Shown in pieces: positions 1,269 to 12,856 of a stretch of DNA of 34,419 nucleotides. Under the pieces are notes generated by a model. The model made no database searches. It was not told where the DNA came from and was given only the letters and a program-made list of their open reading frames with translations. The position numbers and the translations under genes were made by a program. How positions within the stretch are numbered: the stretch's first letter is position 1; every line of letters starts with the position of its first letter. Source of the stretch: Clostridiales bacterium (GTDB lineage Bacteria; Bacillota; Clostridia; Christensenellales; Borkfalkiaceae); contig SVIK01000001.1 of the NCBI GenBank assembly GCA_015069525.1, forward strand, positions 1 through 34,419, read 5' to 3'.

Positions 1269-1375
1269 TAGTCGTTATAAGAATTTTTACAAAAATTATA
1301 AATAAATATACTATTATATTTGAAAAGTAGTGATAAAATATTATATAGAAAAATAAATAAGGACTAAAAACAATT

Positions 1376-2680
1376 ATGAATAAACGTACACAGTTTGATT
1401 TTATTGCTTATATGACGCCACCGCCTGAGAATCCGCGTGGTGACGGAAGAAACGACGTTTCTATCGAGTGTCAAACGGACGAACATTATTCAAATATCGT
1501 TAAATGCGGTTTTAACGGTACGTCCGCCATTTACGAGTATGATGAAGCAGAGTATGAAAAAGCGCTTACTTTATGCGATAAATACGGCCTTACAATGCTT
1601 GTACGCGACCAAAAAGGCTTGGAACAATACGTTGTCAAAGAACTTTGCGTGACGGGTGAAACAGCGGAAGAATGGCTTGCTAAGAATGCAGAGGCCATGA
1701 AGAATCGTTTGGATTTATGCGCAAAACACCCTTCGTTTGCTGGCGTTTTAGCAGCTGACGAACCGCATACGGATAAATATCCGCATTTGAAAATTTTGCA
1801 AGACTGGTTTAACGAAAATTATCCTGGAAAGGAATTTGAAGTCAACCTGTTGCCTGATTACGCTTCTGCGGAACAACTTTTCAATGACGAGAAGGCGGAA
1901 TTTACCTATGAAAAGTATTTAGATGATTTCGTAGAGATTGTGAAGCCTGAATATTTGAGCTACGACCATTACGCATTGATAAAGGACAGGACGACTGGCG
2001 AGGAATATCTTCGTCCCTCCTATCTAAAAAATCTTGAATACTTCGCAAAAGCCTCAAAACGTATTGGAAAAGAGTTTAAAGTATTTCTTTTAACGCTTGG
2101 ACATTGGGATTTTAGAACGGTCACTACGTACGAAGAAATTGCATGGCAAGTGTATACGTCTATGGCTTACGGCGCATCGGGCGCGCAAACGTTCACCTAT
2201 TGGACGTCGCTTGAATACGAGCCGTATAACAATCCTGCAAACGTGACGACGGCGCTTGTTGGGCAAAAAGGCGAGCTTTTGCCTGCTTGGTATGCAATGC
2301 AGGAAACGATTGCAGAAGTGCGCTCTTTCGAAAAGGCGTATTTCAACTATCGTTGGGATAAATGTATTTACTTTTTGGCGGGAGAATCGAACAAATTAAC
2401 CGAGCCTTTGGATAAAAACACGGATGCGTGCTTGATAAAGGCAAAGACGACGGGCGACGTAGTTGTTGGATGTTTCACTAATGAAGCAAACAAGGCTTAC
2501 TTAATTTCCAACCTTACCGACCCGAAGGATAAGCTTTCCGCGAAAATACAGCTGTATTTTGATAAAGATTATTCCGTTATCGTATGGAAAGACGGTAAAA
2601 AGACGGAAACGAATACTAAAAATAAGGAATTATGCTTAGATATTCGTTGTGGATCGGGTGCTTTCATTGAAATTAAATAA
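1376..2680 (+). CDS. Uncharacterised TIM-barrel glycosidase-like protein without signal peptide (paralog 1 of 4 in this window)
   Basis: 434-aa ORF. It shares ordered blocks with ORFs 5649, 26017 and 33607: LAADEPH (DEP at nt 1757-1765), NLLP, LSYDHYAL, AYGASGAQTFTYW, and a C-terminal beta-sandwich-like tail ending GSGAFIEIK. The CDS itself is solid; the function is inferred only. Confidence 0.8.
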   Translation: MNKRTQFDFIAYMTPPPENPRGDGRNDVSIECQTDEHYSNIVKCGFNGTSAIYEYDEAEYEKALTLCDKYGLTMLVRDQKGLEQYVVKELCVTGETAEEWLAKNAEAMKNRLDLCAKHPSFAGVLAADEPHTDKYPHLKILQDWFNENYPGKEFEVNLLPDYASAEQLFNDEKAEFTYEKYLDDFVEIVKPEYLSYDHYALIKDRTTGEEYLRPSYLKNLEYFAKASKRIGKEFKVFLLTLGHWDFRTVTTYEEIAWQVYTSMAYGASGAQTFTYWTSLEYEPYNNPANVTTALVGQKGELLPAWYAMQETIAEVRSFEKAYFNYRWDKCIYFLAGESNKLTEPLDKNTDACLIKAKTTGDVVVGCFTNEANKAYLISNLTDPKDKLSAKIQLYFDKDYSVIVWKDGKKTETNTKNKELCLDIRCGSGAFIEIK

Positions 2681-2686
2681 AAAGAG

Positions 2687-2716
2687 AGCGGTTGTCGAAA
2701 GATAACCGCTTTTTTA
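2687..2716 (+). terminator. Rho-independent terminator
   Basis: Stem AGCGGTT (2687-2693) / AACCGCT (2704-2710) followed by a T-run to 2716. Confidence 0.65.
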
Positions 2717-2746
2717 CTGCAAAAGAGAATAAAAATGTGTAAATTC

Positions 2747-2775
2747 TTGCAAAAATAAGCGGAATATGCTATAAT
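2747..2775 (+). promoter_or_regulatory. Sigma-A type promoter for the CPBP gene
   Basis: TTGCAA (2747-2752), 17-nt spacer ending in TGC (extended -10), TATAAT (2770-2775). Confidence 0.55.
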
Positions 2776-2805
2776 TATATAAATATTTGTTATAAGGTGT
2801 AAAAC

Positions 2806-3642
2806 GTGGCGAAATCCTTAAAAAACAATTACATAAGGAAAGTTGTTATAGGCGTGATAATCCTCGTTTTTGGCGCGTTTATGGCGATTTTGGAGTGGTT
2901 TCCGTTGCCGTTTAGTAAAGACGTTTGGTATAACGCAATTTTCAATAAAACGCTACAACAAATAAGCGGAATTGTCGCAGGAGTGCTTTTTTTACAGTAT
3001 TTAAACGTAAAGCTGTTCAAAAAACCAACCAAATGGCTGTATCTTATTCCCTGTTTGCTAATTGCCGTCAATAACTTTCAATGGTGGTCTTATTTTAGTG
3101 GTTTGCAACGTTTTGTTCGTACAAACGCACTCGATTACGTAATATTTATTATATATTGTCTAAGTGTAGGGATGTTCGAGGAATTTATATTCCGTGGCGT
3201 CTTGTTTTCGGTGCTGGCGGGGTATTTCTCTAAAACAAAGAAGGGATTAATTGCAACGTTTGTCGTATCCTCGCTGTTGTTTGGTATAGCGCATTTATTC
3301 AATTTTAATATATTGCAGGTATTATATACGATATTAACGGGCGGATTGTTTGCGTTTACGTTGATTAAGACAAAGAATCTGCTTTGCTGTGGGCTTGTAC
3401 ACGCCGTATATAATATTTGTGGGTTAATTATGGATAGTCAGGCTTCGTTAGGGCTTGGGAGTGGCGCAATTATATTCAACGTGGGTACGGTATTGACGAT
3501 GGGGATTCCCGCTGTGATAATGGTGGCGTTTGTATTGTATTCCTTAATAAAATACCCCGAAGAAGAGCGAAAAACCTTATATGAAAGACTTGGCGTAAAC
3601 GAAAAGACTGAAAATACGGATAATACGGAAGAAAATCAATAA
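2806..3642 (+). CDS. CPBP (CAAX/Abi) family intramembrane metalloprotease
   Basis: GTG start 6 nt after AAGGTG (2794-2799). Polytopic membrane protein with the three CPBP motifs: EEFIFRG, FGIAHL, HAVYN. Confidence 0.85.
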   Translation: MAKSLKNNYIRKVVIGVIILVFGAFMAILEWFPLPFSKDVWYNAIFNKTLQQISGIVAGVLFLQYLNVKLFKKPTKWLYLIPCLLIAVNNFQWWSYFSGLQRFVRTNALDYVIFIIYCLSVGMFEEFIFRGVLFSVLAGYFSKTKKGLIATFVVSSLLFGIAHLFNFNILQVLYTILTGGLFAFTLIKTKNLLCCGLVHAVYNICGLIMDSQASLGLGSGAIIFNVGTVLTMGIPAVIMVAFVLYSLIKYPEEERKTLYERLGVNEKTENTDNTEENQ

Positions 3643-3709
3643 TAAGGATTAAAAATATATCTAAAAGCAAGAAATGACACTAAAAAGCGAAAAACAACGT
3701 TCAAAAGGG

Positions 3710-3748
3710 CGGAAAAACGGCAAAAAATGCCGTTTTTCCGTATTTTTT
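3710..3748 (+). terminator. Rho-independent terminator of the CPBP gene
   Basis: Stem CGGAAAAACGGCA (3710-3722) / TGCCGTTTTTCCG (3728-3740), loop AAAAA, then TATTTTTT. Confidence 0.8.
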
Positions 3749-3802
3749 ATGCCAAAACGCGTGAAGGATAGGGCAAATGCAAATATTCGCAAATATGAGT
3801 AG

Positions 3803-3882
3803 TATGTCTAACATAATACCTATGTCTGACATAAACGCCCCTATTTTTTACTACGTCTATCATAATACCTATGTTTGACATA
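3803..3882. repeat. Four 13-bp palindromes (consensus TATGTCTnACATA) arranged as two 31-bp direct repeats; operator-like
   Basis: A TATGTCTAACATA 3803-3815; B TATGTCTGACATA 3821-3833; C TACGTCTATCATA 3852-3864; D TATGTTTGACATA 3870-3882. A-B and C-D are both separated by ATACC (18-bp centre spacing). The A to C offset is 49 bp. Confidence 0.7.
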
Positions 3883-3915
3883 GGTAAAATCCCACAAAAA
3901 TCTGCTAAAAACGGC

Positions 3916-3943
3916 TTGACGCTTGTTTTTTATCTGTTATAAT
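3916..3943 (+). promoter_or_regulatory. Sigma-A type promoter driving the riboswitch
   Basis: TTGACG (3916-3921), 16-nt spacer with TGT directly before the -10 (extended -10), TATAAT (3938-3943). Confidence 0.6.
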
Positions 3944-3946
3944 GGG

Positions 3947-4087
3947 CGTACCATAAAGAGTGCGCGAGGGACAAGCCCGTTGACTGCACAGCAACCTACC
4001 GATAAGGCAAGGTGCTAAGGCTTGGAAGATGGGTTTATATCTGCGTGGAAACTCATCTTGCGATGGGTTCTTTTTTGCTCTTTTTTG
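3947..4087 (+). promoter_or_regulatory. SAM-I superfamily (S-box-like) riboswitch with a terminator/antiterminator expression platform
   Basis: Core elements in canonical order: AAGAG, GAGGGA (3966-3971), GCCC (3975-3978), GCAACC (3991-3996), GGUGCUAA (4011-4018), AGAUGG (4027-4032). Helices: P2 GUGC 3960-3963 / GCAC 3986-3989; P3 ACCU 3994-3997 / AGGU 4010-4013. P4 is almost absent and P1 has only about 4 bp (CCAU 3951-3954 / AUGG 4029-4032). An 11-bp antiterminator (4026-4036 / 4049-4059) competes with the terminator (4049-4057 / 4062-4069) plus U-tract (4071-4086). Confidence 0.6.
4049..4087 (+). terminator. Intrinsic terminator of the riboswitch expression platform
   Basis: AAACUCAUC / GAUGGGUU stem (8 bp including one GU), loop UUGC, then CUUUUUUGCUCUUUUUU. 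Confidence 0.75.
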
Positions 4088-4117
4088 GTGATAGTAGGGC
4101 AACTTTTTCGTTGTGTA

Positions 4118-4146
4118 TTGACAAAAGTGAGGACTTCTTATATAAT
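4118..4146 (+). promoter_or_regulatory. Consensus sigma-A promoter immediately upstream of the AlbA_2-type gene
   Basis: TTGACA (4118-4123), exactly 17-nt spacer, TATAAT (4141-4146). It lies 20 nt upstream of ATG 4166, with AAGAGGA at 4153-4159. Confidence 0.65.
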
Positions 4147-4165
4147 ATATATAAGAGGACGTCTT

Positions 4166-5551
4166 ATGATTGATTTAAAAAACGTAGAAAATTATCGTGA
4201 AAACAATCGAATAGAGGCAAAAAAAGCGCTTGGTGGGCTTCCAAAAAGTCTTTGGGAGACGTATTCTGCATTTGCGAACACGTACGGTGGCGTTATTTTA
4301 TTGGGCGTTAAAGAGGAAGCCGATAAAAGTTTGCACGCCGTACGTTTGCCCGACCCTGAAAAACTTTTGGCTGAGTTTTGGGGGATTATCAACGATAAAT
4401 CCAAGGTAAGCGTCAATATTCTCACGCAAAAGCAGGTGAAGATTGTGGGGGTTGGGGAAAATCGTTTTATCAGTATTCACGTCCCTCGGGCGAGCCGTTT
4501 TGACAAGCCTGTTTTTATTGGTAGCGACCCGTTTTTGGGCAGTTATCGTAGGACGGGTGAAGGAGATTATCGTTGTGAAGAGGAAGAGGTAAAAAGCATG
4601 ATTCGCGACGCTACGAAAGTAGCCGAAGATATGCGTCCGTTGCCCGATGGCGATTATCGCGAACTTGAAAAAAAGAGTATATCTTCCTATCGTCAAGCGG
4701 TGTTAAAAAACAGACCGTCAACTTTGTTGGCGCAGTTAAGTGAAGAGGATTTTTTATTCAAGACGGGCGTTATCGCACGGGAGAACACGGGAAAACTTCG
4801 TCCTACGAAAGCGGGACTTCTTATGTTGGGGCAATGGAAGAGTATTAAAGAACGTTTTCCTAATTTTAGATTGTTTTTTGAAACGCGCACAAACGAGGGA
4901 AAGACGAAAAAGGAATATCGTGAAAACGTATTTTCTTTTTTTAACCGTGTTAGCGAGGATTTTCGGGCAACGTTATTGGATGAAAACGCCTATCTTGCTT
5001 CGCTTGAAGCCTTGACGAATTGCCTTATCAACGCTGATTACAATGCAAAAAGCGGTATCTACGTGACCAATAAAAAATCGGGGCTTTCCTTTTCCAACCC
5101 AGGCGGATTCCGTATGTCGGTAGACCAAGCAAAGTCGGGCGGTGTTTCCGACCCTCGCAACTTGGGTTTGCTCCGCTTATTCTATTTTTTGGGAGCGGGA
5201 AGTGGTACGGGTAGCGGTATTCCAAGTGTCTTTGCTAATTGGTGCAAAAACGGACGAGGCATGCCCGTTATCCGTGAAAGTTTCCGCCCTGAGAGAGTAA
5301 ACGTGATTTTGCCTTACGCTATGGAAACGGGAAGAAAGAATTTGTTTAAGACAAAAGCGGGAAAACTCTCTTTTGGTGAAGAGGAAAAGAGGGTGATTAT
5401 AGAGTTTATTACCGAGCGTATCAGCGCTACGGTAGGTGAGATTTCATTGGCACTACATTTGCCGTCTGCGGAAATTAAGGAAATGCTTGAAAAGTTATTA
5501 GAAGACGGTGTTTTGAAAAAAGAGGGAAATGCCTACTCGTTAAAGAGCTGA
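4166..5551 (+). CDS. Schlafen/AlbA_2 domain plus HATPase_c_4-like plus C-terminal winged-helix protein (often annotated as putative DNA-binding or RecG-like ATP-binding regulator)
   Basis: Start moved from 4022 to ATG 4166 (RBS AAGAGGA; the upstream 48 codons overlap the riboswitch, terminator and promoter). N-terminus ENNRIEAKKALGGLPKSLWETYSAFANTYGGVILLGV is AlbA_2-like. Central block SNPGGF...SDPRN...GSGIPSV. C-terminal wHTH-like EEEKRVIIEFI...EMLEKLLEDGVLKKEGNAYSLK. Confidence 0.7.
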   Translation: MIDLKNVENYRENNRIEAKKALGGLPKSLWETYSAFANTYGGVILLGVKEEADKSLHAVRLPDPEKLLAEFWGIINDKSKVSVNILTQKQVKIVGVGENRFISIHVPRASRFDKPVFIGSDPFLGSYRRTGEGDYRCEEEEVKSMIRDATKVAEDMRPLPDGDYRELEKKSISSYRQAVLKNRPSTLLAQLSEEDFLFKTGVIARENTGKLRPTKAGLLMLGQWKSIKERFPNFRLFFETRTNEGKTKKEYRENVFSFFNRVSEDFRATLLDENAYLASLEALTNCLINADYNAKSGIYVTNKKSGLSFSNPGGFRMSVDQAKSGGVSDPRNLGLLRLFYFLGAGSGTGSGIPSVFANWCKNGRGMPVIRESFRPERVNVILPYAMETGRKNLFKTKAGKLSFGEEEKRVIIEFITERISATVGEISLALHLPSAEIKEMLEKLLEDGVLKKEGNAYSLKS

Positions 5552-5648
5552 AAATAGACTTTTTTACAAATTTATAGGATTAAATTACAAGAATAAACGA
5601 AAGAAATAATTTATTATTATATTAATAAATTAAGAGGGGAAACTATTT

Positions 5649-7142
5649 ATGAGATTAAAGAAGACGATTGCATTATGTTTGTCTATGTTGACGGCGTTTT
5701 CCTTTGTCGCTTGTGGCGTGAGTGAGGGTAAAAACGACGATAATTCGTCGCTTCAAGTGAATACGGGGAAAGCCTATGAAACAAGCGCAAACAACGACGT
5801 GGAGACGGGGAAGGCTCTTTCCACATCCGCGCGCTTGCGGAAAAAATACGGTTCTTATTGGACCCCGCAAACCGATTATAAAACGATGCCTATCGGCGCA
5901 TACAACGGTTTACCGCCGAGTGGTTCGCTTGGGTTTGATTATGATTACGAACAAGTATTAAGCGATTATAACGAGCTCGGCGTTAATTACTTGTTTGGCT
6001 TATATAATAGCGCAAACCAGAATCTTGAGCATGAAAAAACCACGTTATCGCTTTGTGATGAATATAATATATCCTATCTTTCCAAGTGGAACGCGTTGCA
6101 TTGGGAAACGGAAAGCAGTTTGCAAAATCAAAAGGCAATCTTGGAAGAGTTGACGAAATATGAAAGCTTTATGGGACCGATTATCGTTGACGAGCCTGGA
6201 AAAATGGCTTTCCAAGGTATGGCAACCGCCCGCGATGCGTTTGAGAAAGTGATTGGGGCAAACGCCAACGATTATTTGTATCACGTCAATCTTCTTCCCA
6301 ATTGGGCAGGGTGCGAGCCTTTGTACAATTTCCAAGCAAAAAATCCGGAAAGCGATTGGGACGTCTATAAAAATTATACCTATAATCAATATTTGACGGA
6401 TTATATGCAGATATACAATCCCCAAGTGCTCTCTTACGATTTCTATCCTATGGTGGGGGCGGAAAAGGAGCTCAAAGACGGGTATTTTGAAAATCTTTCC
6501 GTTATTCGTGAAAAGGCGTTGGAGGCGAATATTCCCTTCTGGACGTTTGTGCAAACGTGCGCGTGGGATTTTAATCAACGCTTGCCAAGCAAAGAAGAGT
6601 TGTTGTGGAACGTCAATACTTGTCTTGCTTACGGTGCGAAAGGGATAGAGTATTTTTGCGGTGTAGAGCCTTGGAATAGCACGAGTGCCGAACATTTCTC
6701 TGCTTCGCTTTTCTATAAAGACGGCAGTCACGTACCCGTTGTATACGATAGTGCGCTTCTTGCAAATAAGCAAATTCAAGCAATTGACGAAGTGTTGATG
6801 TGTTCTAAGAGTAAGGGTGTGATTTTCGTTGGCGATACTCCCGCGCTTTCAAACGGTACGAACAAGACGATGACGCCTTCTACGAGGGACGTGCTTAAAA
6901 GCTATAACGAATTGACTTCGGCGTCGGCGTTTCACGCGTTAATCGGTTGTTTCTATTACGAGGGAAAGACGGCGCTTTACGTTGTGAATAACTCGGTAAG
7001 CGAAGCGGATGCCGTGAATTTGCAATTTAATAAAGCTGTGCAAGGAACGTACACGCAAGGTGCAACGAAGAAGACTTTCTCGGGTGATACATTGCGATTG
7101 ACGTTGGAAGCGGGTGATGGAGTGCTCGTTGTGCTCGATTGA
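5649..7142 (+). CDS. Lipoprotein member of the uncharacterised TIM-barrel glycosidase-like family (paralog 2 of 4)
   Basis: RBS AGAGGGG. Signal peptide with lipobox FVAC (Cys22). Family blocks: IIVDEPG (DEP at nt 6189-6197), NLLPNW, LSYDFYPM, PFWTFVQT, AYGAKGIEYFCG, C-terminal LTLEAGDGVLVVLD. Confidence 0.8.
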   Translation: MRLKKTIALCLSMLTAFSFVACGVSEGKNDDNSSLQVNTGKAYETSANNDVETGKALSTSARLRKKYGSYWTPQTDYKTMPIGAYNGLPPSGSLGFDYDYEQVLSDYNELGVNYLFGLYNSANQNLEHEKTTLSLCDEYNISYLSKWNALHWETESSLQNQKAILEELTKYESFMGPIIVDEPGKMAFQGMATARDAFEKVIGANANDYLYHVNLLPNWAGCEPLYNFQAKNPESDWDVYKNYTYNQYLTDYMQIYNPQVLSYDFYPMVGAEKELKDGYFENLSVIREKALEANIPFWTFVQTCAWDFNQRLPSKEELLWNVNTCLAYGAKGIEYFCGVEPWNSTSAEHFSASLFYKDGSHVPVVYDSALLANKQIQAIDEVLMCSKSKGVIFVGDTPALSNGTNKTMTPSTRDVLKSYNELTSASAFHALIGCFYYEGKTALYVVNNSVSEADAVNLQFNKAVQGTYTQGATKKTFSGDTLRLTLEAGDGVLVVLD

Positions 7143-7156
7143 TAAAAACGCGCTTT

Positions 7157-7261: not shown

Positions 7262-7570
7262 ATGTATAAGGTAAAAATAACGGCAATTAGAAAAACGGAA
7301 TATCCCGATTTGATGAAGAAATACGAAAACCCGATAGAACATACCTGTGATTTATCTATCGGGCAGAGTTTTATTTCGTCTGGGGAAAAACCGACGGGTT
7401 TTTGCGATAGCGCGTGGGAGAGCGTTGCACCGTTCGTGAAAACGCTTTGCGAGGGTGGCGGTAATTTTTACGACGGTTGGATGAAGAACCCTTATTCCGC
7501 CATGATATCTTGCAACGACGGCTTTCGTCCCGTTAGTTTTTATTTAGAAAGGGTTGAGGAGAATTCGTAA
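7262..7570 (+). CDS. TIGR04076 family protein (function unknown)
   Basis: Start moved to ATG 7262. MYKVKITAIRK...PIEHTCDL..GQSF...KPTGFCDSAW...GGGNFYDGWMK...ISCNDGFRPVSFYLERVEE matches my memory of the TIGR04076 pattern (about 100 aa, conserved Cys, GFC..AW, C.DG.RPV.F.LER). Confidence 0.7.
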   Translation: MYKVKITAIRKTEYPDLMKKYENPIEHTCDLSIGQSFISSGEKPTGFCDSAWESVAPFVKTLCEGGGNFYDGWMKNPYSAMISCNDGFRPVSFYLERVEENS

Positions 7571-8286
7571 TGGCGTCGATAGAACAAAATGGGACGACTT
7601 TTACTTTTTCCGTATTACCGCTTGAAAAACGAGCTGACGGATTTTGGGCGCGCACGGAAACTGCACTTAAAAATCCGTATATTTCCTATCAATATATTGG
7701 TGAGGAATTTTCCAAGGAAGAGATAGAAAATTGGATATTCAGTATGTTTCGCTTTCTTGCGGGCGGTTATGCGAAGGAAAGGAGCTTGTCTTTTGAAAAG
7801 GCGGGGCTTGCGATAGATTTTTATCCGTATACGGCAAACGGTGGGGACGAGTCAAGGCACGTTCGCCGTGCTAACGATTGTGTAATGGCAATTCGTCTTT
7901 TGATGCGCGATAACGGGAATTGGCTGGGTGGCGTATACTCCGTTATGCTACATAGAAAGGAAATAGAATCCTTTGCTTTGGCGTTGCGGGAGGAGTTTGT
8001 TTCCGCTTTTGCTCGCTTTGAGAAAAAGAGAGGGAAGTACTTGTTCGTCGGGGTGAGCCCCGAAGGGTATAAAGGTTGTAATTATTGGTATTTAGACAAA
8101 ACGAAGAAGGTAAAGGCAGGCGATTACGTTTGGGTGATAATGGGCAGACATAAAACCAAACAAATCGTGTACGTGGACAGCGTACGCTTTTGCGACGAGG
8201 ATACTTCGCCTTGCGAACCTGACGAGGCGAAATGCGTTTTACGGATAGCAAACGATGAGGAAATAAAAGAATATTTAAAGGGATAA
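7570..8286 (+). CDS. Hypothetical two-domain protein, translationally coupled to the TIGR04076 gene
   Basis: ATG 7570 overlaps the upstream stop TAA 7568-7570 (TAATG). 238 aa with no signal peptide or TM segment. I recognised no family with confidence. Confidence 0.75.
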   Translation: MASIEQNGTTFTFSVLPLEKRADGFWARTETALKNPYISYQYIGEEFSKEEIENWIFSMFRFLAGGYAKERSLSFEKAGLAIDFYPYTANGGDESRHVRRANDCVMAIRLLMRDNGNWLGGVYSVMLHRKEIESFALALREEFVSAFARFEKKRGKYLFVGVSPEGYKGCNYWYLDKTKKVKAGDYVWVIMGRHKTKQIVYVDSVRFCDEDTSPCEPDEAKCVLRIANDEEIKEYLKG

Positions 8287-8287
8287 G

Positions 8288-8325
8288 AAAAACCCCGAGT
8301 ACGGAACTCCGTCCTCGGGGTTTTA
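8288..8325. terminator. Bidirectional terminator between convergent genes
   Basis: Outer stem AAAACCCCGAG (8289-8299) / CTCGGGGTTTT (8314-8324) and inner stem ACGGA / TCCGT. A/T runs on both sides. It lies between the + stop at 8286 and the potD stop at 8330. Confidence 0.85.
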
Positions 8326-8329
8326 ATAA

Positions 8330-9697
8330 TTAAAGGAAAGTAATATCGCTCCACATCATATTAGCGCGCGTATTGGCTGCGCCTTCGAAGGGGCGCATGG
8401 CAACGCAATGCGCAAGTGTTTCCATTGTGGGATATTGGGCGAATAACTGTCTTTTTAACTGCTCGGCAGGGGTGGATAAAACGTAGCCCTCGCCGAAGAA
8501 ATAGCTCAAATCGTAATCAACAGCCGTTTCGTCGTCCTCTTCCGCGGAATAATATTCTTCTACGTAATTTTCGTAGATATAATTATAATATTCGTCCGCT
8601 TCCGATTTAGGACCTGCAATACAGCTTGTATACCCGATAAACTCCATATTTCTCACGACGTTGTCGGGGCGGGAGAGGAAGTTGATAAACATGGTAGCCG
8701 CTTCCACGTCGCTACAATCTTTTGTCAACGTCCAGCCGTCAAACCAAAGATTGCTAACCGATTCAGGTATAGCGTAATTCAGCGTGATAGGGTTGGCAAC
8801 GGGGTTTTCCTCGTCTGCGCCTTCGGCGTAATCCATTACGTATACGCCGTCACCGCTCCATTGGTAATTGACGGTTATTTTTCCTGCAATCGTATCGTTT
8901 TTGCCTTCGTCCGTTTCAAAGCCGTAAAGATTGTCCGTGATAGACATCAGTTTCTTTTTTACGGCGTTCATCGTGCTTTCTTTCGTGTCGTTCATGATTT
9001 CCGTTAATTGCGCTTGATAGACGGCGAGGGGAATATTCCCTTTCTCGTATTCCGCTTTCAGTTGCAACAATTCGTCTTCATAAAGCATAGCCAGCCCAAC
9101 GAAATAGGTATCGCGAATATTATTTTTCGCCGTAATCTTGTGTGCATATTTTTTGTTGGTAAAGATATCCCAGCTCTTTACGTCGTTTTCGTCTACAAGT
9201 TCGGGGTTATACACAAAGCCCGTCGTGCCCCACATATACCCTGCGGAATATTCCTTCCAAGAATCCGTCTTTTCACCGTCGATATAGTTGGTGGAGAAGG
9301 TGCTGTCGATGTAGGGGGATACGTATTGAATATAGTAGTTCGTTTCCACGCTTTCGTCGAAAAAGGAAGCGGGCAATTTTTGGATATAGCCTTCTTTTGC
9401 GAGCTTCATAATCATATATTCTGACGGGCAAACAAGGTCGAAGCTGTCGCCCATTTTCAGCATACTGTAAAGCGATTCGTTGTCGGGCGCGGTGCAATAC
9501 TCAACGCGGATTTTTTTGCCCGTTTGTTTAAAATACCAATCTTCAAACTCGGCAATCATCGGGCTGTTGGCGTCCCCGCCGTCAATGTATTCCGCCCAGT
9601 TTGCCACTTTCAAAACGGGAGTTCTTTCGCAAGCGACTCCGCAAGAAAGAATAAAGGAAAGGGTAATGCCCAAGGCAATATATTTTTTCATTTTCAT
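8330..9697 (-). CDS. potD: Spermidine/putrescine ABC transporter substrate-binding lipoprotein
   Basis: Last gene of the potABCD order. Start set at ATG 9697-9695, which overlaps the potC stop (ATGA). Signal peptide MKMKKYIALGITLSFILSCG with a lipobox-like ILSC. PotD-like YMWGTTGFVYN block. Confidence 0.8.
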   Translation of the reverse strand: MKMKKYIALGITLSFILSCGVACERTPVLKVANWAEYIDGGDANSPMIAEFEDWYFKQTGKKIRVEYCTAPDNESLYSMLKMGDSFDLVCPSEYMIMKLAKEGYIQKLPASFFDESVETNYYIQYVSPYIDSTFSTNYIDGEKTDSWKEYSAGYMWGTTGFVYNPELVDENDVKSWDIFTNKKYAHKITAKNNIRDTYFVGLAMLYEDELLQLKAEYEKGNIPLAVYQAQLTEIMNDTKESTMNAVKKKLMSITDNLYGFETDEGKNDTIAGKITVNYQWSGDGVYVMDYAEGADEENPVANPITLNYAIPESVSNLWFDGWTLTKDCSDVEAATMFINFLSRPDNVVRNMEFIGYTSCIAGPKSEADEYYNYIYENYVEEYYSAEEDDETAVDYDLSYFFGEGYVLSTPAEQLKRQLFAQYPTMETLAHCVAMRPFEGAANTRANMMWSDITFL

Positions 9698-10500
9698 TGT
9701 CTTTTCCCTGCCTTTTTGCCCGTGCGTACGTTCATTACGATAACGGCAATTACGATGATGAGGAAAATAATCGCCGTAAACGCCCAATAGGAAGATTTGA
9801 TAACTTCTACTTGGCTTCCCTTAGAAAGGCTGTAAATATGCGTGCTTATCGTATCGAAAGTATTCGGTTTCGTGTATTCCGCAATTACGTAATCGTCCAA
9901 AGAAAGGGTGACGGCAAGCAAAAAGCCTGCGATAATCCCTGGTAAAATTTGCGGGATGATTACGGAAAAGAGCGCTTTTGTCGGCGTAGCCCCCAAATCG
10001 AGCGCCGCTTCGTATAAATTATTATCCATTTGTTTGAGTTTGGGGATAATGGAAAGCACGACGAAAGGAGTGCAAAGCACCATTTGTCCGAAAATCAGGG
10101 GTACGTAAGTGTATTTAGGCAACCCGATTGCCACCACGAGGAAAGCAAAGGAGATGGCTGTCACCACTTCCGCGTTGATGATGGGGATTTGGTTAATGCT
10201 GTTCAATGCGGAAGCCGTTCTTTTCTTGGAATAGAAAATACCGATAGCACCGATTGTACCAAGTAAAGTGGAGAGAGTAGCGACGACGATAGCAAGCGCC
10301 AACGTTTGTAAAACGATAGGCAAAGGCTGATTGTCCATATTAAAGAAATATTCATAATGGTCGAGACTGAACCCGTTCCAAGAGCTAATCGTATCCGACG
10401 CGTTAAAGCTGTATACGGTAAGAAGCATAATGGGCGCATAGATAAATAAGATGATTAAGCCTACGAATAACCATTTCAAACAAGATTTGATTTTTACCAT
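9694..10500 (-). CDS. potC: Spermidine/putrescine ABC transporter permease
   Basis: Polytopic membrane protein with EAA loop YEAALDLGATPTKALFSVIIPQILPGI. Overlaps potB by 7 nt. Confidence 0.85.
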   Translation of the reverse strand: MVKIKSCLKWLFVGLIILFIYAPIMLLTVYSFNASDTISSWNGFSLDHYEYFFNMDNQPLPIVLQTLALAIVVATLSTLLGTIGAIGIFYSKKRTASALNSINQIPIINAEVVTAISFAFLVVAIGLPKYTYVPLIFGQMVLCTPFVVLSIIPKLKQMDNNLYEAALDLGATPTKALFSVIIPQILPGIIAGFLLAVTLSLDDYVIAEYTKPNTFDTISTHIYSLSKGSQVEVIKSSYWAFTAIIFLIIVIAVIVMNVRTGKKAGKRQ

Positions 10501-11339
10501 AACGACGTACCTCTCGTATTCGTTTCCGATTCCGTGCTAAATCCGCCCGTAGCCCAAGTAATGAGGAACATAAGCGTCAATAACAACAGCGCCGTCACCG
10601 AGCCGATATTCCATAAATCGTTTCTAAAACATTCGTCTATGAAAGAACCGATAATTTTGGTGTGGTTGAACGTCATATAATTGGATACGACGTAGTTCGT
10701 CATAGACGGTAAAAATACCATAGATATCCCGCTCATAATTCCTGCTTTGGAAAGGGGCAAGGTCACTTTAACAAACGCTTTTGCGGGTGTTGCGCCAAGG
10801 TCTTTGGCGGCTTCAAGGTAGCTTTTATCAATCTTAATAATCGTGGTGTAGATAGGTAAAATCATAAAGGGGAGGAAGTCGTACACCATACCAAGCACGG
10901 TGTTAAAGATGTTCCAACCTGGTTTGTTGTAAATACCAATCCACTCCAACAATTCTTTCAGCGCGTTGATACGGAGCACGAAATTTACCCACATCGGCAC
11001 GATGAATAAGAGCAATAAGCCGAACTTATTTTTTAATTTGCAGTTAGCGATGATATAAGCGATAGGATAGGCGATAAGCAAGCATACGATTGTGCTTGTG
11101 AAAGAGATGAACAAGCTTTGCAAAATCGTCTTAAAGCGTGCCGTTTGAAAAAAGCTGTCGCCACCGCTTCCGCTGAAAAAGATTACAAGGTTTTCAAAGG
11201 TGAATTTACCGTTTGCGTCGGTAAAGGCGTAATACACGATAATAAGCAAGGGAACGACGACGAAGAACCCTAAAAACAAACCGTAGGGTATCGCCAACAA
11301 TTTCCTTGAAAAACGTGGACGAAATTTGGTGTTTGTCAT
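10494..11339 (-). CDS. potB: Spermidine/putrescine ABC transporter permease
   Basis: Polytopic membrane protein with EAA loop LEAAKDLGATPAKAFVKVTLPLSKAGI. 4-nt overlap with potA. Confidence 0.85.
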   Translation of the reverse strand: MTNTKFRPRFSRKLLAIPYGLFLGFFVVVPLLIIVYYAFTDANGKFTFENLVIFFSGSGGDSFFQTARFKTILQSLFISFTSTIVCLLIAYPIAYIIANCKLKNKFGLLLLFIVPMWVNFVLRINALKELLEWIGIYNKPGWNIFNTVLGMVYDFLPFMILPIYTTIIKIDKSYLEAAKDLGATPAKAFVKVTLPLSKAGIMSGISMVFLPSMTNYVVSNYMTFNHTKIIGSFIDECFRNDLWNIGSVTALLLLTLMFLITWATGGFSTESETNTRGTSLW

Positions 11340-12856
11340 TGTTTCTTGCCCTCCGCAACTTTCAGCGAAAGCTTGATTTTATCTTTGGGGATAATAAGGC
11401 TGACAAGGTCGTTTTCGTTCCACAAGTCTTCGCAAGCAAGTACGTAATCTTCTTCGTTTTCCGTACGTACGATATAACGGTAATATTCACTCTTATAAAT
11501 AAGCGAGATAATATTCCCTTTTGCTCCGCCCTCGTCGAGGTTGTCGCTCATGGTGATGTCGTGTAAACCGACTTCCACGTTTACTTCCGTATCGGTGAGG
11601 TCGATTTTTTCACCTTTTGCCGTAATAAGATATCCTTCTTCGTCCAGCACGCTTCCAGGATACAATTGCGTGACGTCGCACTCAAATTCTCCGTCGCCAA
11701 ACTCTACGGTGTTGCGTTTTGTAATAACGCCGTTGAAACGGTTGACGCGGAATACCTTTTTCATGACGTGGATACCGTCGGGTTTAATGGAAAGGCTAAC
11801 CTGCGAACCGAGCGTCGGCGCCTGCGTGCTTTGGATTTCAATTTCATATCTTCCGCATTGTACCAAAATTTGGTAATGCATGCCTTTGAAGATAACGGAG
11901 GTGACTTTGCCTTTTAAGGGCAACGCATCGGGGGGGAGAATTTCCACGTCTTCGGGACGAACGACGACGTCTACGGGCTCGTCCTTTTCAAATCCGCCGT
12001 CCAAACACGCAAACGTCTTTCCGCAGAAACGCACTTGTCCGTCTTTGGGCATCACGCCGGAGAAAATATTGCTTTCACCGATGAAGTCTGCCACGAAGGT
12101 GTTTTTCGGCTCGTTATAAATGCTTTCGGGCGTACCGATTTGTTGAATTACGCCGTCTGCCATAACGACGATGGTGTCCGACATAGTAAGGGCTTCTTCT
12201 TGGTCGTGTGTGACGTAGATAAAGGTGATGCCCAATTTTTTGTGCATGGCTTTGAGTTCCAACTGCATTTCCTTGCGCATCTTCAAATCGAGTGCGCCAA
12301 GCGGTTCGTCGAGAAGCAAAATTTCGGGCTCGTTTACAATTGCGCGCGCGATAGCGATACGCTGTTGTTGTCCACCTGAAAGGGTAGCGATGCTACGCTT
12401 TTCAAAACCGCTTAAATCGACGATTTCAAGCGCTTTTTTAACTTTTTCTGCAATAATAGCTTTCGGGAGTTTTTCTAAACGAGTTTTTTCATTACCACGT
12501 TTATCCACGTACGTCGTTTCCACGCGTTTTTGTTTAAGCCCAAACGCAACGTTTTCAAAAACGTTGAGGTGGGGGAAGAGCGCGTATTTTTGGAAGACGG
12601 TATTGACAGGGCGTTTGTTGGGGGGCAAGTTGCTGATATCCTGTCCGTTAAGCAAGATTTGTCCGCTTGTAGGCATATCAAAGCCTGCAATCATGCGCAA
12701 GGTCGTCGTTTTGCCACACCCCGAAGGACCGAGGAAGGTGACGAATTCGCCTTTGCGCACGTAGAGGTTCATATTCTCCACGACGGAAACGCCGTCAAAT
12801 TGTTTGCATACGTCAATAAGTTCGATTATTTTACGTTCGTTTTGATTGTTAGCCAT
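11336..12856 (-). CDS. potA: Spermidine/putrescine import ATP-binding protein with an extended C-terminus
   Basis: Walker A GPSGCGKTT, signature LSGGQQQR, Walker B LLLDEPL, H-loop VTHDQ, a TOBE-like region, then about 140 extra residues. RBS AGGAGAA before ATG 12856. Confidence 0.9.
   Translation of the reverse strand: MANNQNERKIIELIDVCKQFDGVSVVENMNLYVRKGEFVTFLGPSGCGKTTTLRMIAGFDMPTSGQILLNGQDISNLPPNKRPVNTVFQKYALFPHLNVFENVAFGLKQKRVETTYVDKRGNEKTRLEKLPKAIIAEKVKKALEIVDLSGFEKRSIATLSGGQQQRIAIARAIVNEPEILLLDEPLGALDLKMRKEMQLELKAMHKKLGITFIYVTHDQEEALTMSDTIVVMADGVIQQIGTPESIYNEPKNTFVADFIGESNIFSGVMPKDGQVRFCGKTFACLDGGFEKDEPVDVVVRPEDVEILPPDALPLKGKVTSVIFKGMHYQILVQCGRYEIEIQSTQAPTLGSQVSLSIKPDGIHVMKKVFRVNRFNGVITKRNTVEFGDGEFECDVTQLYPGSVLDEEGYLITAKGEKIDLTDTEVNVEVGLHDITMSDNLDEGGAKGNIISLIYKSEYYRYIVRTENEEDYVLACEDLWNENDLVSLIIPKDKIKLSLKVAEGKKQ

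Follow-up and report, generated by a model that had tools for sequence, protein, structure and literature searches.

Why should a riboswitch for S-adenosylmethionine (SAM) stand, with a promoter and a terminator of its own, in front of a gene of the AlbA_2 type? This question is raised by a 34,419-nt stretch of DNA from a Clostridiales bacterium (contig SVIK01000001.1 of GenBank assembly GCA_015069525.1), the whole of which is referred to here as the window. Positions 3916-4076 of its forward strand probably hold an intact, orphaned leader of the SAM-I (S-box) class, placed fortuitously before an AlbA_2 gene that is unrelated to it and self-sufficient. All eight other copies of the leader precede a small open reading frame (ORF), and this ORF is absent here, so that the copy in the window is best regarded as a leader separated from its gene. 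The orphaning would have occurred either through loss of the small gene or through relocation of the leader alone, and the leader probably still works as a SAM-responsive terminator.

An intact leader with its own promoter and terminator

The cassette opens with a sigma-70-type promoter at 3916-3943 (TTGACG, a 16-nt spacer bearing TG, and TATAAT) that agrees with the consensus at 11 of 12 positions, and its extended -10 is as described in a first-pass annotation of this DNA made from the letters alone. Directly upstream, at 3902-3915, lies an A-rich stretch, CTGCTAAAAACGGC, which marks the 5′ boundary of homology and is common to most of the homologous leaders when the upstream 14-mers of all nine are compared; it could act as an UP element. 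By the usual spacing between a -10 element and its start, transcription would begin at about 3950. A start there would place the first helix of the aptamer, P1, at the extreme 5′ end of the RNA and would give a terminated transcript of about 127 nt, instead of the approximately 140 nt first proposed.

A scan of the whole 34-kb window with Rfam returned a single hit above any gathering score, namely the SAM-I family RF00162 at 3948-4035 on the forward strand (48.5 bits against a gathering score of 44.4; E 2.5e-08). A permissive scan of 3700-4300 gave the same match (E 4.4e-10), together with one further family of the same clan, reported at E up to 10, that scored lower than RF00162. The first-pass annotation had described a riboswitch of the SAM-I superfamily, driven by a promoter of its own, and had proposed covariance-model comparisons with the clan; RF00162 proved to be the best of these, and the core lies where it had been placed. 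P1 comprises 4 bp (3951-3954, CCAU, with 4029-4032, AUGG). It is followed by P2a (3960-3964 with 3985-3989, 5 bp), a 3-nt bulge, the GA...GA positions, and P2b (3968-3970 with 3976-3978, 3 bp), a layout of the sequence that would fit a division of P2 by a kink-turn-type internal loop. P3 pairs 3990-4000 with 4006-4016, as judged by pair counts on the nine homologues, and the pseudoknot PK-1 joins CAAG of the P2 loop (3972-3975) to CUUG of the J3/4 junction (4021-4024); it is fully paired in all nine copies. The junction J4/1, GAAG at 4025-4028, is purine-rich and comparable to the “aaag” of the SAM-I consensus. The P4 positions of the model are deleted in the window copy, and none of the nine leaders has a helix between J3/4 and the 3′ strand of P1, in line with the earlier remark on a nearly absent P4 and a P1 of only about 4 bp. 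The minimum free energy fold of the whole leader (z-score -1.7) did not recover the aptamer, and such folds are uninformative for a pseudoknotted, ligand-dependent RNA.

The expression platform is built around a duplication of GATGGGTT, which occurs at 4028-4035 and again at 4062-4069 (direct repeat D2). One pairing forms an 11-bp antiterminator, AAGAUGGGUUU (4026-4036) with AAACUCAUCUU (4049-4059), which has a predicted energy of -11.9 kcal/mol and takes up the 3′ strand of P1. The other forms an intrinsic terminator with an 8-bp stem, consisting of AACUCAUC (4050-4057), a UUGC loop, GAUGGGUU (4062-4069), a single C, and UUUUUU at 4071-4076, so that a G+C-containing stem-loop stands directly before a run of six T residues. 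At -8.8 kcal/mol, this terminator (4050-4069) is weaker than the antiterminator. Both structures, and the duplicated P1 strand that underlies them, are those drawn in the first-pass annotation.

These parts and their mutually exclusive pairings come from the sequence and its comparison with relatives, and SAM binding, termination, the start of transcription, and read-through into 4166-5551 are inferred. If the RNA works as other S-box leaders do, the 4-bp P1 of the SAM-bound form would hold the first GAUGGGUU through 4029-4032. Positions 4050-4057 would then stay free until 4062-4069 had been made, would pair with the second GAUGGGUU, and would stop the polymerase at 4071-4078. When SAM is scarce, 4049-4059 would capture 4026-4036 in the antiterminator, and the polymerase would read on. 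The lack of P4 and the shortness of P1 suggest that SAM would be bound weakly and that expression would be shut off only at high SAM levels.

A family of nine leaders

Eight comparison leaders from uncultured Clostridia, in loci reached through homologues of the small ORF or by chance, are available for this RNA: L002, L086, L088, L089, L090, L091, L092 (identical to L093), and L094. The first of these, from Clostridiales bacterium SIG394, is 78% identical to the leader of the window. All eight reach at least the Rfam gathering score of RF00162, with 53.3 bits for L002, 46.6 for L086, 51.8 for L088, 52.3 for L089, 50.3 for L090, 50.7 for L091, 53.8 for L092, and 50.7 for L094, and the score of the window copy falls inside this range (46.6-53.8). 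Each of the nine has a promoter of the form TTGACR, a 16-17-nt spacer, and a TATAAT-like -10, and the distance from the end of the -10 to CCAU is 7 nt in every leader except L088, where it is 8 nt. The 4-bp P1 (CCAU/AUGG), the P2a, bulge, and P2b succession, P3, PK-1, and the absence of P4 are likewise common to all.

Pairing within the family bears out the structure. Standard pairs fill 97.9% of the pair cells across the nine leaders, versus 28-41% when the partners are slid by one to three columns, and both strands have changed in seven pairs (two in P2a, three in P3, and two in PK-1). None of 500 shuffles reached the observed pairing and covariation values, although the nine-leader alignment was fitted to the model, so that these counts lean toward the structure, and a single divergent sequence supplies most of the covariation. 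With six sequences, covariation was not significant, and it became so only once L091, L092, and L094 were added. The clearest case is PK-1 of L094, in which CAAG/CUUG has become CAGC/GCUG with two pairs changed on both sides. The comparative support for the proposed structure thus appears real but not deep. It extends over P2, P3, PK-1, and the platform; the first-pass annotation had suggested such a covariation analysis in homologous intergenic regions.

The platform itself is also conserved. A helix equivalent to the antiterminator occurs in all nine leaders (9-11 bp, -9.6 to -12.3 kcal/mol), as does a stem-loop terminator with its U-tract (-8.3 to -13.6 kcal/mol). The middle strand of the platform varies (ACUCAUC, ACCCGUC, GCCCAUC, and AUCCAUC), and each variant still pairs with both copies of GAUGGGU; in L094, both copies read GAUGGAU and the middle strand has a compensating AUCCAUC. 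Against this background, the aptamer of the window agrees with the other eight wherever they are invariant, and so has no private substitution there. The P2a of the window copy reads GUGCG/UGCAC, versus GUGUA/UACAC in most copies, with every pair kept. This leader can be put forward as a lineage-specific subtype, in other words, a SAM-I riboswitch that lacks an internal P4 and has a predicted transcription-terminating OFF platform.

The small open reading frame normally served by the leader

In all eight other leaders, a conserved small ORF begins 32-43 nt 3′ of the U-tract. It is found at 12422-12664 in L002 (80 aa), 16423-16656 in L086, 907-1245 in L088, 1617-1844 in L089, 401-694 in L090, 4001-4225 in L091, 4001-4237 in L092, and 4001-4270 in L094. 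The family comprises proteins of 74-112 aa with the motif G-x-N-V-T-C-x-A-A and, in a set of 1.84 billion representative proteins, falls into about 60 clusters at 50% identity; the 80-aa ORF of L002 served as the starting point for finding its homologues and their contigs. Even the ORF of L094 (P0208), only 25% identical to the reference protein, still follows the leader. No match to Pfam was found for the family, and an AlphaFold model of the small protein, though confident (predicted local distance difference test score 81.6), found no fold in the PDB at an E of 0.001 or better. The genes around the ORF vary by locus and include a cupin gene, tRNA clusters, nucleoside phosphorylase genes, and others; the unit of promoter, leader, and ORF therefore behaves as an independent monocistronic module. 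Its link to the leader makes the small protein a new candidate for membership of the SAM/methionine regulon and provides a first clue to its role. In this lineage of uncultured Clostridia, a minimal SAM-I leader with a 4-bp P1 and no P4 serves one family of small proteins.

The same partnership bears on an earlier suggestion. Of the three readings offered in the first-pass annotation, that of a relic of a lost met gene came closest. What the leader of the window lacks is not a met gene, though, but the ORF of 74-112 aa found after it in eight of eight other copies.

A further hairpin, formed by CCUCUUUG, a loop, and CAAAGAGG, occurs in all eight of the ORF-linked leaders (-4.2 to -13.4 kcal/mol) and buries the Shine-Dalgarno (SD) sequence of the small ORF. 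It lies at 12386-12424 in L002 and at equivalent positions in the other seven loci, with its 5′ arm directly after the terminator U-tract. A second, translational layer of control over the small ORF is possible.

The missing partner and the closest relative

Homology between the window and the other leaders runs from the -35 element or just 5′ of it (3916 by nhmmer) to about 4092. The last part of this interval, 4077-4092, is GCUCUUUUUUGGUGAU, a degenerate remnant of the post-terminator motif CUCUUUGUGGAA, as judged by the alignment and by the nhmmer end point; in the other leaders, this motif forms the 5′ arm of the hairpin that buries the SD. The homology ends inside this degenerate copy, which reads GCUCUUUUUUGGUGA where the other leaders have CUCUUUGUGGAA. 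Beyond about 4092, the window has neither the small ORF nor its SD, and the hairpin has no 3′ arm. A six-frame hmmsearch of the whole 34-kb window with the small-ORF profile found no homologue (best E 0.95).

The closest relative of this locus, L082, encodes an AlbA_2 protein 81% identical to that of the window, amid flanking DNA that is 74-76% identical. By blastn, the two loci are colinear on either side of the cassette, with window positions 1375-3892 corresponding to 6-2456 of L082 and 4102-7146 to 2490-5549; MAFFT puts the gap of L082 in the wrong place. The intervening segment of the window (3893-4101, 209 bases), which holds the whole riboswitch cassette, is replaced in L082 by 33 unrelated bases. 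This 33-bp filler showed no significant similarity to the insert of the window, 75 of 2000 shuffles scoring as high, and the Rfam model found no SAM riboswitch in L082. The relative does keep the AlbA_2 consensus promoter and a set of upstream repeats. In the window, these are direct repeats of 34 nt (3800-3833 and 3849-3882), 88% identical and 49 nt apart, and the palindrome TATGTnTGACATA closes each of them. Their position is conserved in L082 (2379-2399 and 2426-2446), and neither the rest of the window nor 94 loci hold a further copy. Lying between the protease terminator and the AlbA_2 promoter, they resemble paired operator sites.

The downstream AlbA_2 gene

The gene that follows the cassette (4166-5551, forward strand) encodes a protein of 461 aa with SLFN_AlbA_2 (PF04326, 1.6e-09) and HATPase_c_4 (PF13749, 2.1e-06) domains. 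It is not a methionine, cysteine, or SAM gene, and the Pfam result agrees with the first-pass statement that no such gene lies downstream. An SD precedes the ORF, and a consensus promoter at 4118-4146, also present in L082, matches 12 of 12 positions, as the first-pass annotation had it when it described a second, perfect promoter. This promoter is context to the riboswitch rather than a part of it. No terminator-like site was found between 4077 and 4166, so that low SAM should add AlbA_2 transcripts with a long leader to those from the gene's own promoter. Incidental, SAM-repressible read-through into this gene may be the sole plausible cis output of the orphaned leader.

Homologues of the AlbA_2 protein number in the thousands in Clostridia. 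In L002, the AlbA_2 protein is 57% identical to that of the window, and the leader lies 4.9 kb from the AlbA_2 gene and is followed by the 80-aa ORF. When 0.95 Mb from 89 sources, among them 85 other loci with AlbA_2 homologues, was scanned with a covariance model built for this aptamer, only the nine known copies were recovered, and in this material the leader is therefore paired with an AlbA_2 gene in the window alone. Searches with nhmmer and with a regular expression for the S-box core, the latter too strict in that it missed two true copies, found no leader beside other AlbA_2 genes. Similarly, three loci that are syntenic for the AlbA_2 gene (L083, L085, and L087) have no SAM match within 10 kb.

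A palindrome at 4129-4163 (CTTATATA-ATA-TATATAAG with extensions) spans the AlbA_2 -10 element and SD and is also found in L082. It could be an autoregulatory operator, and it could also form a hairpin over the AlbA_2 SD in read-through RNA from the riboswitch promoter.

Class of the riboswitch and register of P1

The RNA of the window shares with SAM-I (RF00162) the order of the core, P1, P2a and P2b, P3, PK-1, the purine J4/1, and a platform of antiterminator and terminator. It departs from the usual member in lacking an internal P4 and in having a P1 of 4 bp, presumably at the very 5′ end. Also unlike the usual SAM-I leader, those of its relatives are tied to a small ORF and not to methionine, cysteine, or SAM genes, and its own is tied to no gene. 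The absence of P4 does not exclude it from the class, because natural members without P4 have been reported (PMC12714719). These short-P4 or P4-less aptamers form a group of Actinomycetota in the Rfam alignment, and SAM aptamers are reported to be able to work without P4, with an affinity that drops as P4 shortens (PMC12714719). The leader resembles that group in having P4 deleted from an otherwise SAM-I core, a likeness drawn from the published description, and differs from it in its lineage of uncultured Clostridia and its fixed link to a small ORF. Judged by its sequence, the RNA is a SAM-I member with P4 deleted.

The first-pass annotation had seen a resemblance to SAM-IV or SAM-I/IV. SAM-IV lacks the P4 of SAM-I, joins a pseudoknot, PK-2, to a P5 stem-loop, and replaces the kink-turn of SAM-I by a shorter turn of four nucleotides; in SAM-I/IV, the P2 helix is not divided and PK-1 is absent (PMC6890682). 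These families (RF00634 and RF01725) belong to the same clan as RF00162 and have a similar ligand-binding core without a P4 of the SAM-I type, which is what the RNA has in common with them, and in the window alone four bases of the P3 loop (GAUA, 4001-4004) could pair with UAUC in the tail (4038-4041). That pseudoknot, proposed in the first-pass annotation, is drawable in only one of the nine homologues, and the conserved PK-2 of the published descriptions and P5 are both absent. On the other hand, RF00162 is the best match in the clan, the P2a/P2b split is kept, and PK-1 is present and covaries to CAGC/GCUG in L094. Membership of SAM-IV or SAM-I/IV in place of SAM-I was rejected on these grounds, and we regard it as extremely improbable.

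A different concern is the register in which P1 closes. The antiterminator hairpin at 4026-4059 might itself be P4, in which case P1 would close with the second AUGG (4063-4066) and P1 plus the U-tract would terminate transcription. The Rfam model picks this long register for three leaders (L002, L086, and L089, with matches of 115-121 nt), the corresponding fold of the window is lower in energy than the short register with its terminator (-29.2 versus -25.9 kcal/mol), and the C before the second GAUGG, invariant in all nine leaders, could pair with the invariant G before CUUG. Still, the model prefers the short register in six of the nine leaders, namely that of the window and five others, in which its P4 positions are deleted; a four-way junction is recovered in the remaining three only by taking the antiterminator as P4. 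The purine J4/1 (GAAG, with A79 and G81 invariant), which matches the “aaag” of SAM-I, precedes the first copy only. Moreover, a canonical stem-loop terminator, in most cases with an A-rich run before the stem, occurs in all nine and needs the short register, and a 4-bp P1 closing a four-way junction would be an unlikely terminator stem. The short register is therefore favoured for the predicted switch, and the long register, possible as an alternative ligand-binding fold, is a doubtful account of termination. The three long-register matches lie at 12256-12376 in L002, 16258-16376 in L086, and 1461-1575 in L089. Automated annotation of minimal leaders can evidently misplace P1 and P4, mistaking the antiterminator for P4 and the terminator's 3′ arm for the 3′ strand of P1.

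Possible functions of the probable orphan leader

What, then, might the cassette be doing in the window? Several points weigh against regarding it simply as an orphaned leader. It is undecayed and carries no private substitutions, and a useless relic would be expected to gather changes unless the orphaning event was recent or the RNA was still of use. Relative to L082, the indel may be either a gain or a loss. Other orphan copies would be missed by an approach that reached its comparison loci through the small ORF or by chance, and a full copy of leader plus ORF elsewhere in the genome, if there is one, may make the window copy a duplicated leader.

The alternatives overlap in part. It is conceivable, if rather unlikely, that the cassette has been kept as an autonomous SAM-sensing unit, either tying the AlbA_2 gene to SAM through read-through or producing a small RNA with a regulatory or SAM-buffering role; in a sub-variant of this idea, the antiterminator hairpin doubles as a surrogate P4 and the aptamer closes in two registers. 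If true, a riboswitch would have moved to a new site as nothing more than a unit running from promoter to terminator, and a non-metabolic, AlbA_2-type DNA-binding or defence-like gene would be linked to the level of SAM. One version holds that the leader is under selection as a SAM-gated second promoter whose read-through at low SAM adds to, or interferes with, the transcripts of the AlbA_2 gene. The common orientation of leader and gene, the lack of a terminator-like site between 4077 and 4166, the intact promoter, aptamer, and platform, and an antiterminator stable enough relative to the terminator (-11.9 versus -8.8 kcal/mol) to make read-through the default would all fit such exaptation. 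It is nonetheless unlikely, as L082 has the AlbA_2 gene and promoter without the leader, none of the 85 other loci with an AlbA_2 homologue has it, and all eight other copies serve another gene. In addition, the AlbA_2 gene has a perfect consensus promoter of its own, and the palindrome at 4129-4163 could fold over its SD in just the RNA that read-through would yield.

The terminated RNA of about 127 nt might instead be the product itself, for example, a small RNA acting as SreA and SreB of Listeria do on prfA, or a SAM-binding sponge. The cassette is self-contained from promoter to terminator and has no cognate ORF, and there is precedent for terminated SAM riboswitch RNAs acting in trans (PMC8079631). 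This parallel, to which the first-pass annotation had appealed for its stand-alone RNA, is inexact. Besides its action in trans, SreA serves lmo2419-2417 as a normal cis leader (PMC8079631), and it thus offers no model for an orphan. Together with the absence of the cassette from L082 and the use of all other copies as ordinary 5′ untranslated regions, this makes a trans-acting RNA quite improbable. Similarly slight is the chance that the cassette is an inert relic, untranscribed or unresponsive to SAM, that awaits a deletion such as that in L082. Presence in one of two close relatives and absence from the other would suit this, as would the already degenerate motif at 4077-4092 and the weaker SAM binding reported for P4-less aptamers (PMC12714719). 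Against it stand, however, a promoter with 11 of 12 consensus positions and an extended -10, an aptamer, PK-1, antiterminator, and terminator that are all intact and without private substitutions, and an Rfam score inside the range of the ORF-linked copies. An orphaned leader that probably retains its switch remains the preferred account, and the window offers a natural snapshot of riboswitch modules being lost or moved to new genes. Its novelty is low as regards the class of riboswitch and moderate as regards the link to the small ORF and the orphan state.

Two known systems help to place this arrangement. Like SreA and SreB, the leader is a SAM-I RNA terminated from its own promoter; unlike SreA, which has its cis operon (lmo2419-2417) and a known base-pairing target, it has neither a cognate gene nor a known target, no search for one having been made because complementarity within 34 kb would not be informative. 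In Clostridium acetobutylicum, an S-box drives an RNA that is antisense to the operon it controls (PMC2258182). There, as here, a SAM-I switch of the terminator type gives a read-through product that is not the mRNA of a sulfur gene, but the read-through is antisense, and the gene downstream of the window leader is on the same strand.

Genomic surroundings

On its 5′ side, the cassette is preceded by tuf, an unknown gene of 434 aa, and a gene for a CPBP/Rce1-like protease (2806-3642) with its terminator (3709-3741). Two small ORFs in this region were dismissed. One of 42 aa (3674-3802, forward strand), present as a gene call on the public contig, overlaps the protease terminator and looks spurious, and one of 65 aa (3905-4102, reverse strand) lies within the RNA element and is absent from L082.

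The AlbA_2 gene may occupy an integration hot spot in L086 and L002. In the former, a tRNA gene followed by a phage-type integrase and a helix-turn-helix regulator (7408-9282) lies just 5′ of the AlbA_2 homologue, and in the latter a tRNA gene stands directly 5′ of the AlbA_2 gene.

Finally, further along the window, a convergent block of four ORFs (8330-12856, reverse strand; 485, 268, 281, and 506 aa) starts 44 nt after a gene of 238 aa, at the place where L002 and L086 have the cupin gene, the leader, and the small ORF. On the public contig, the first ORF of the block has hits to SBP_bac_8 and SBP_bac_6 that point to an uptake system of the ATP-binding cassette (ABC) type.

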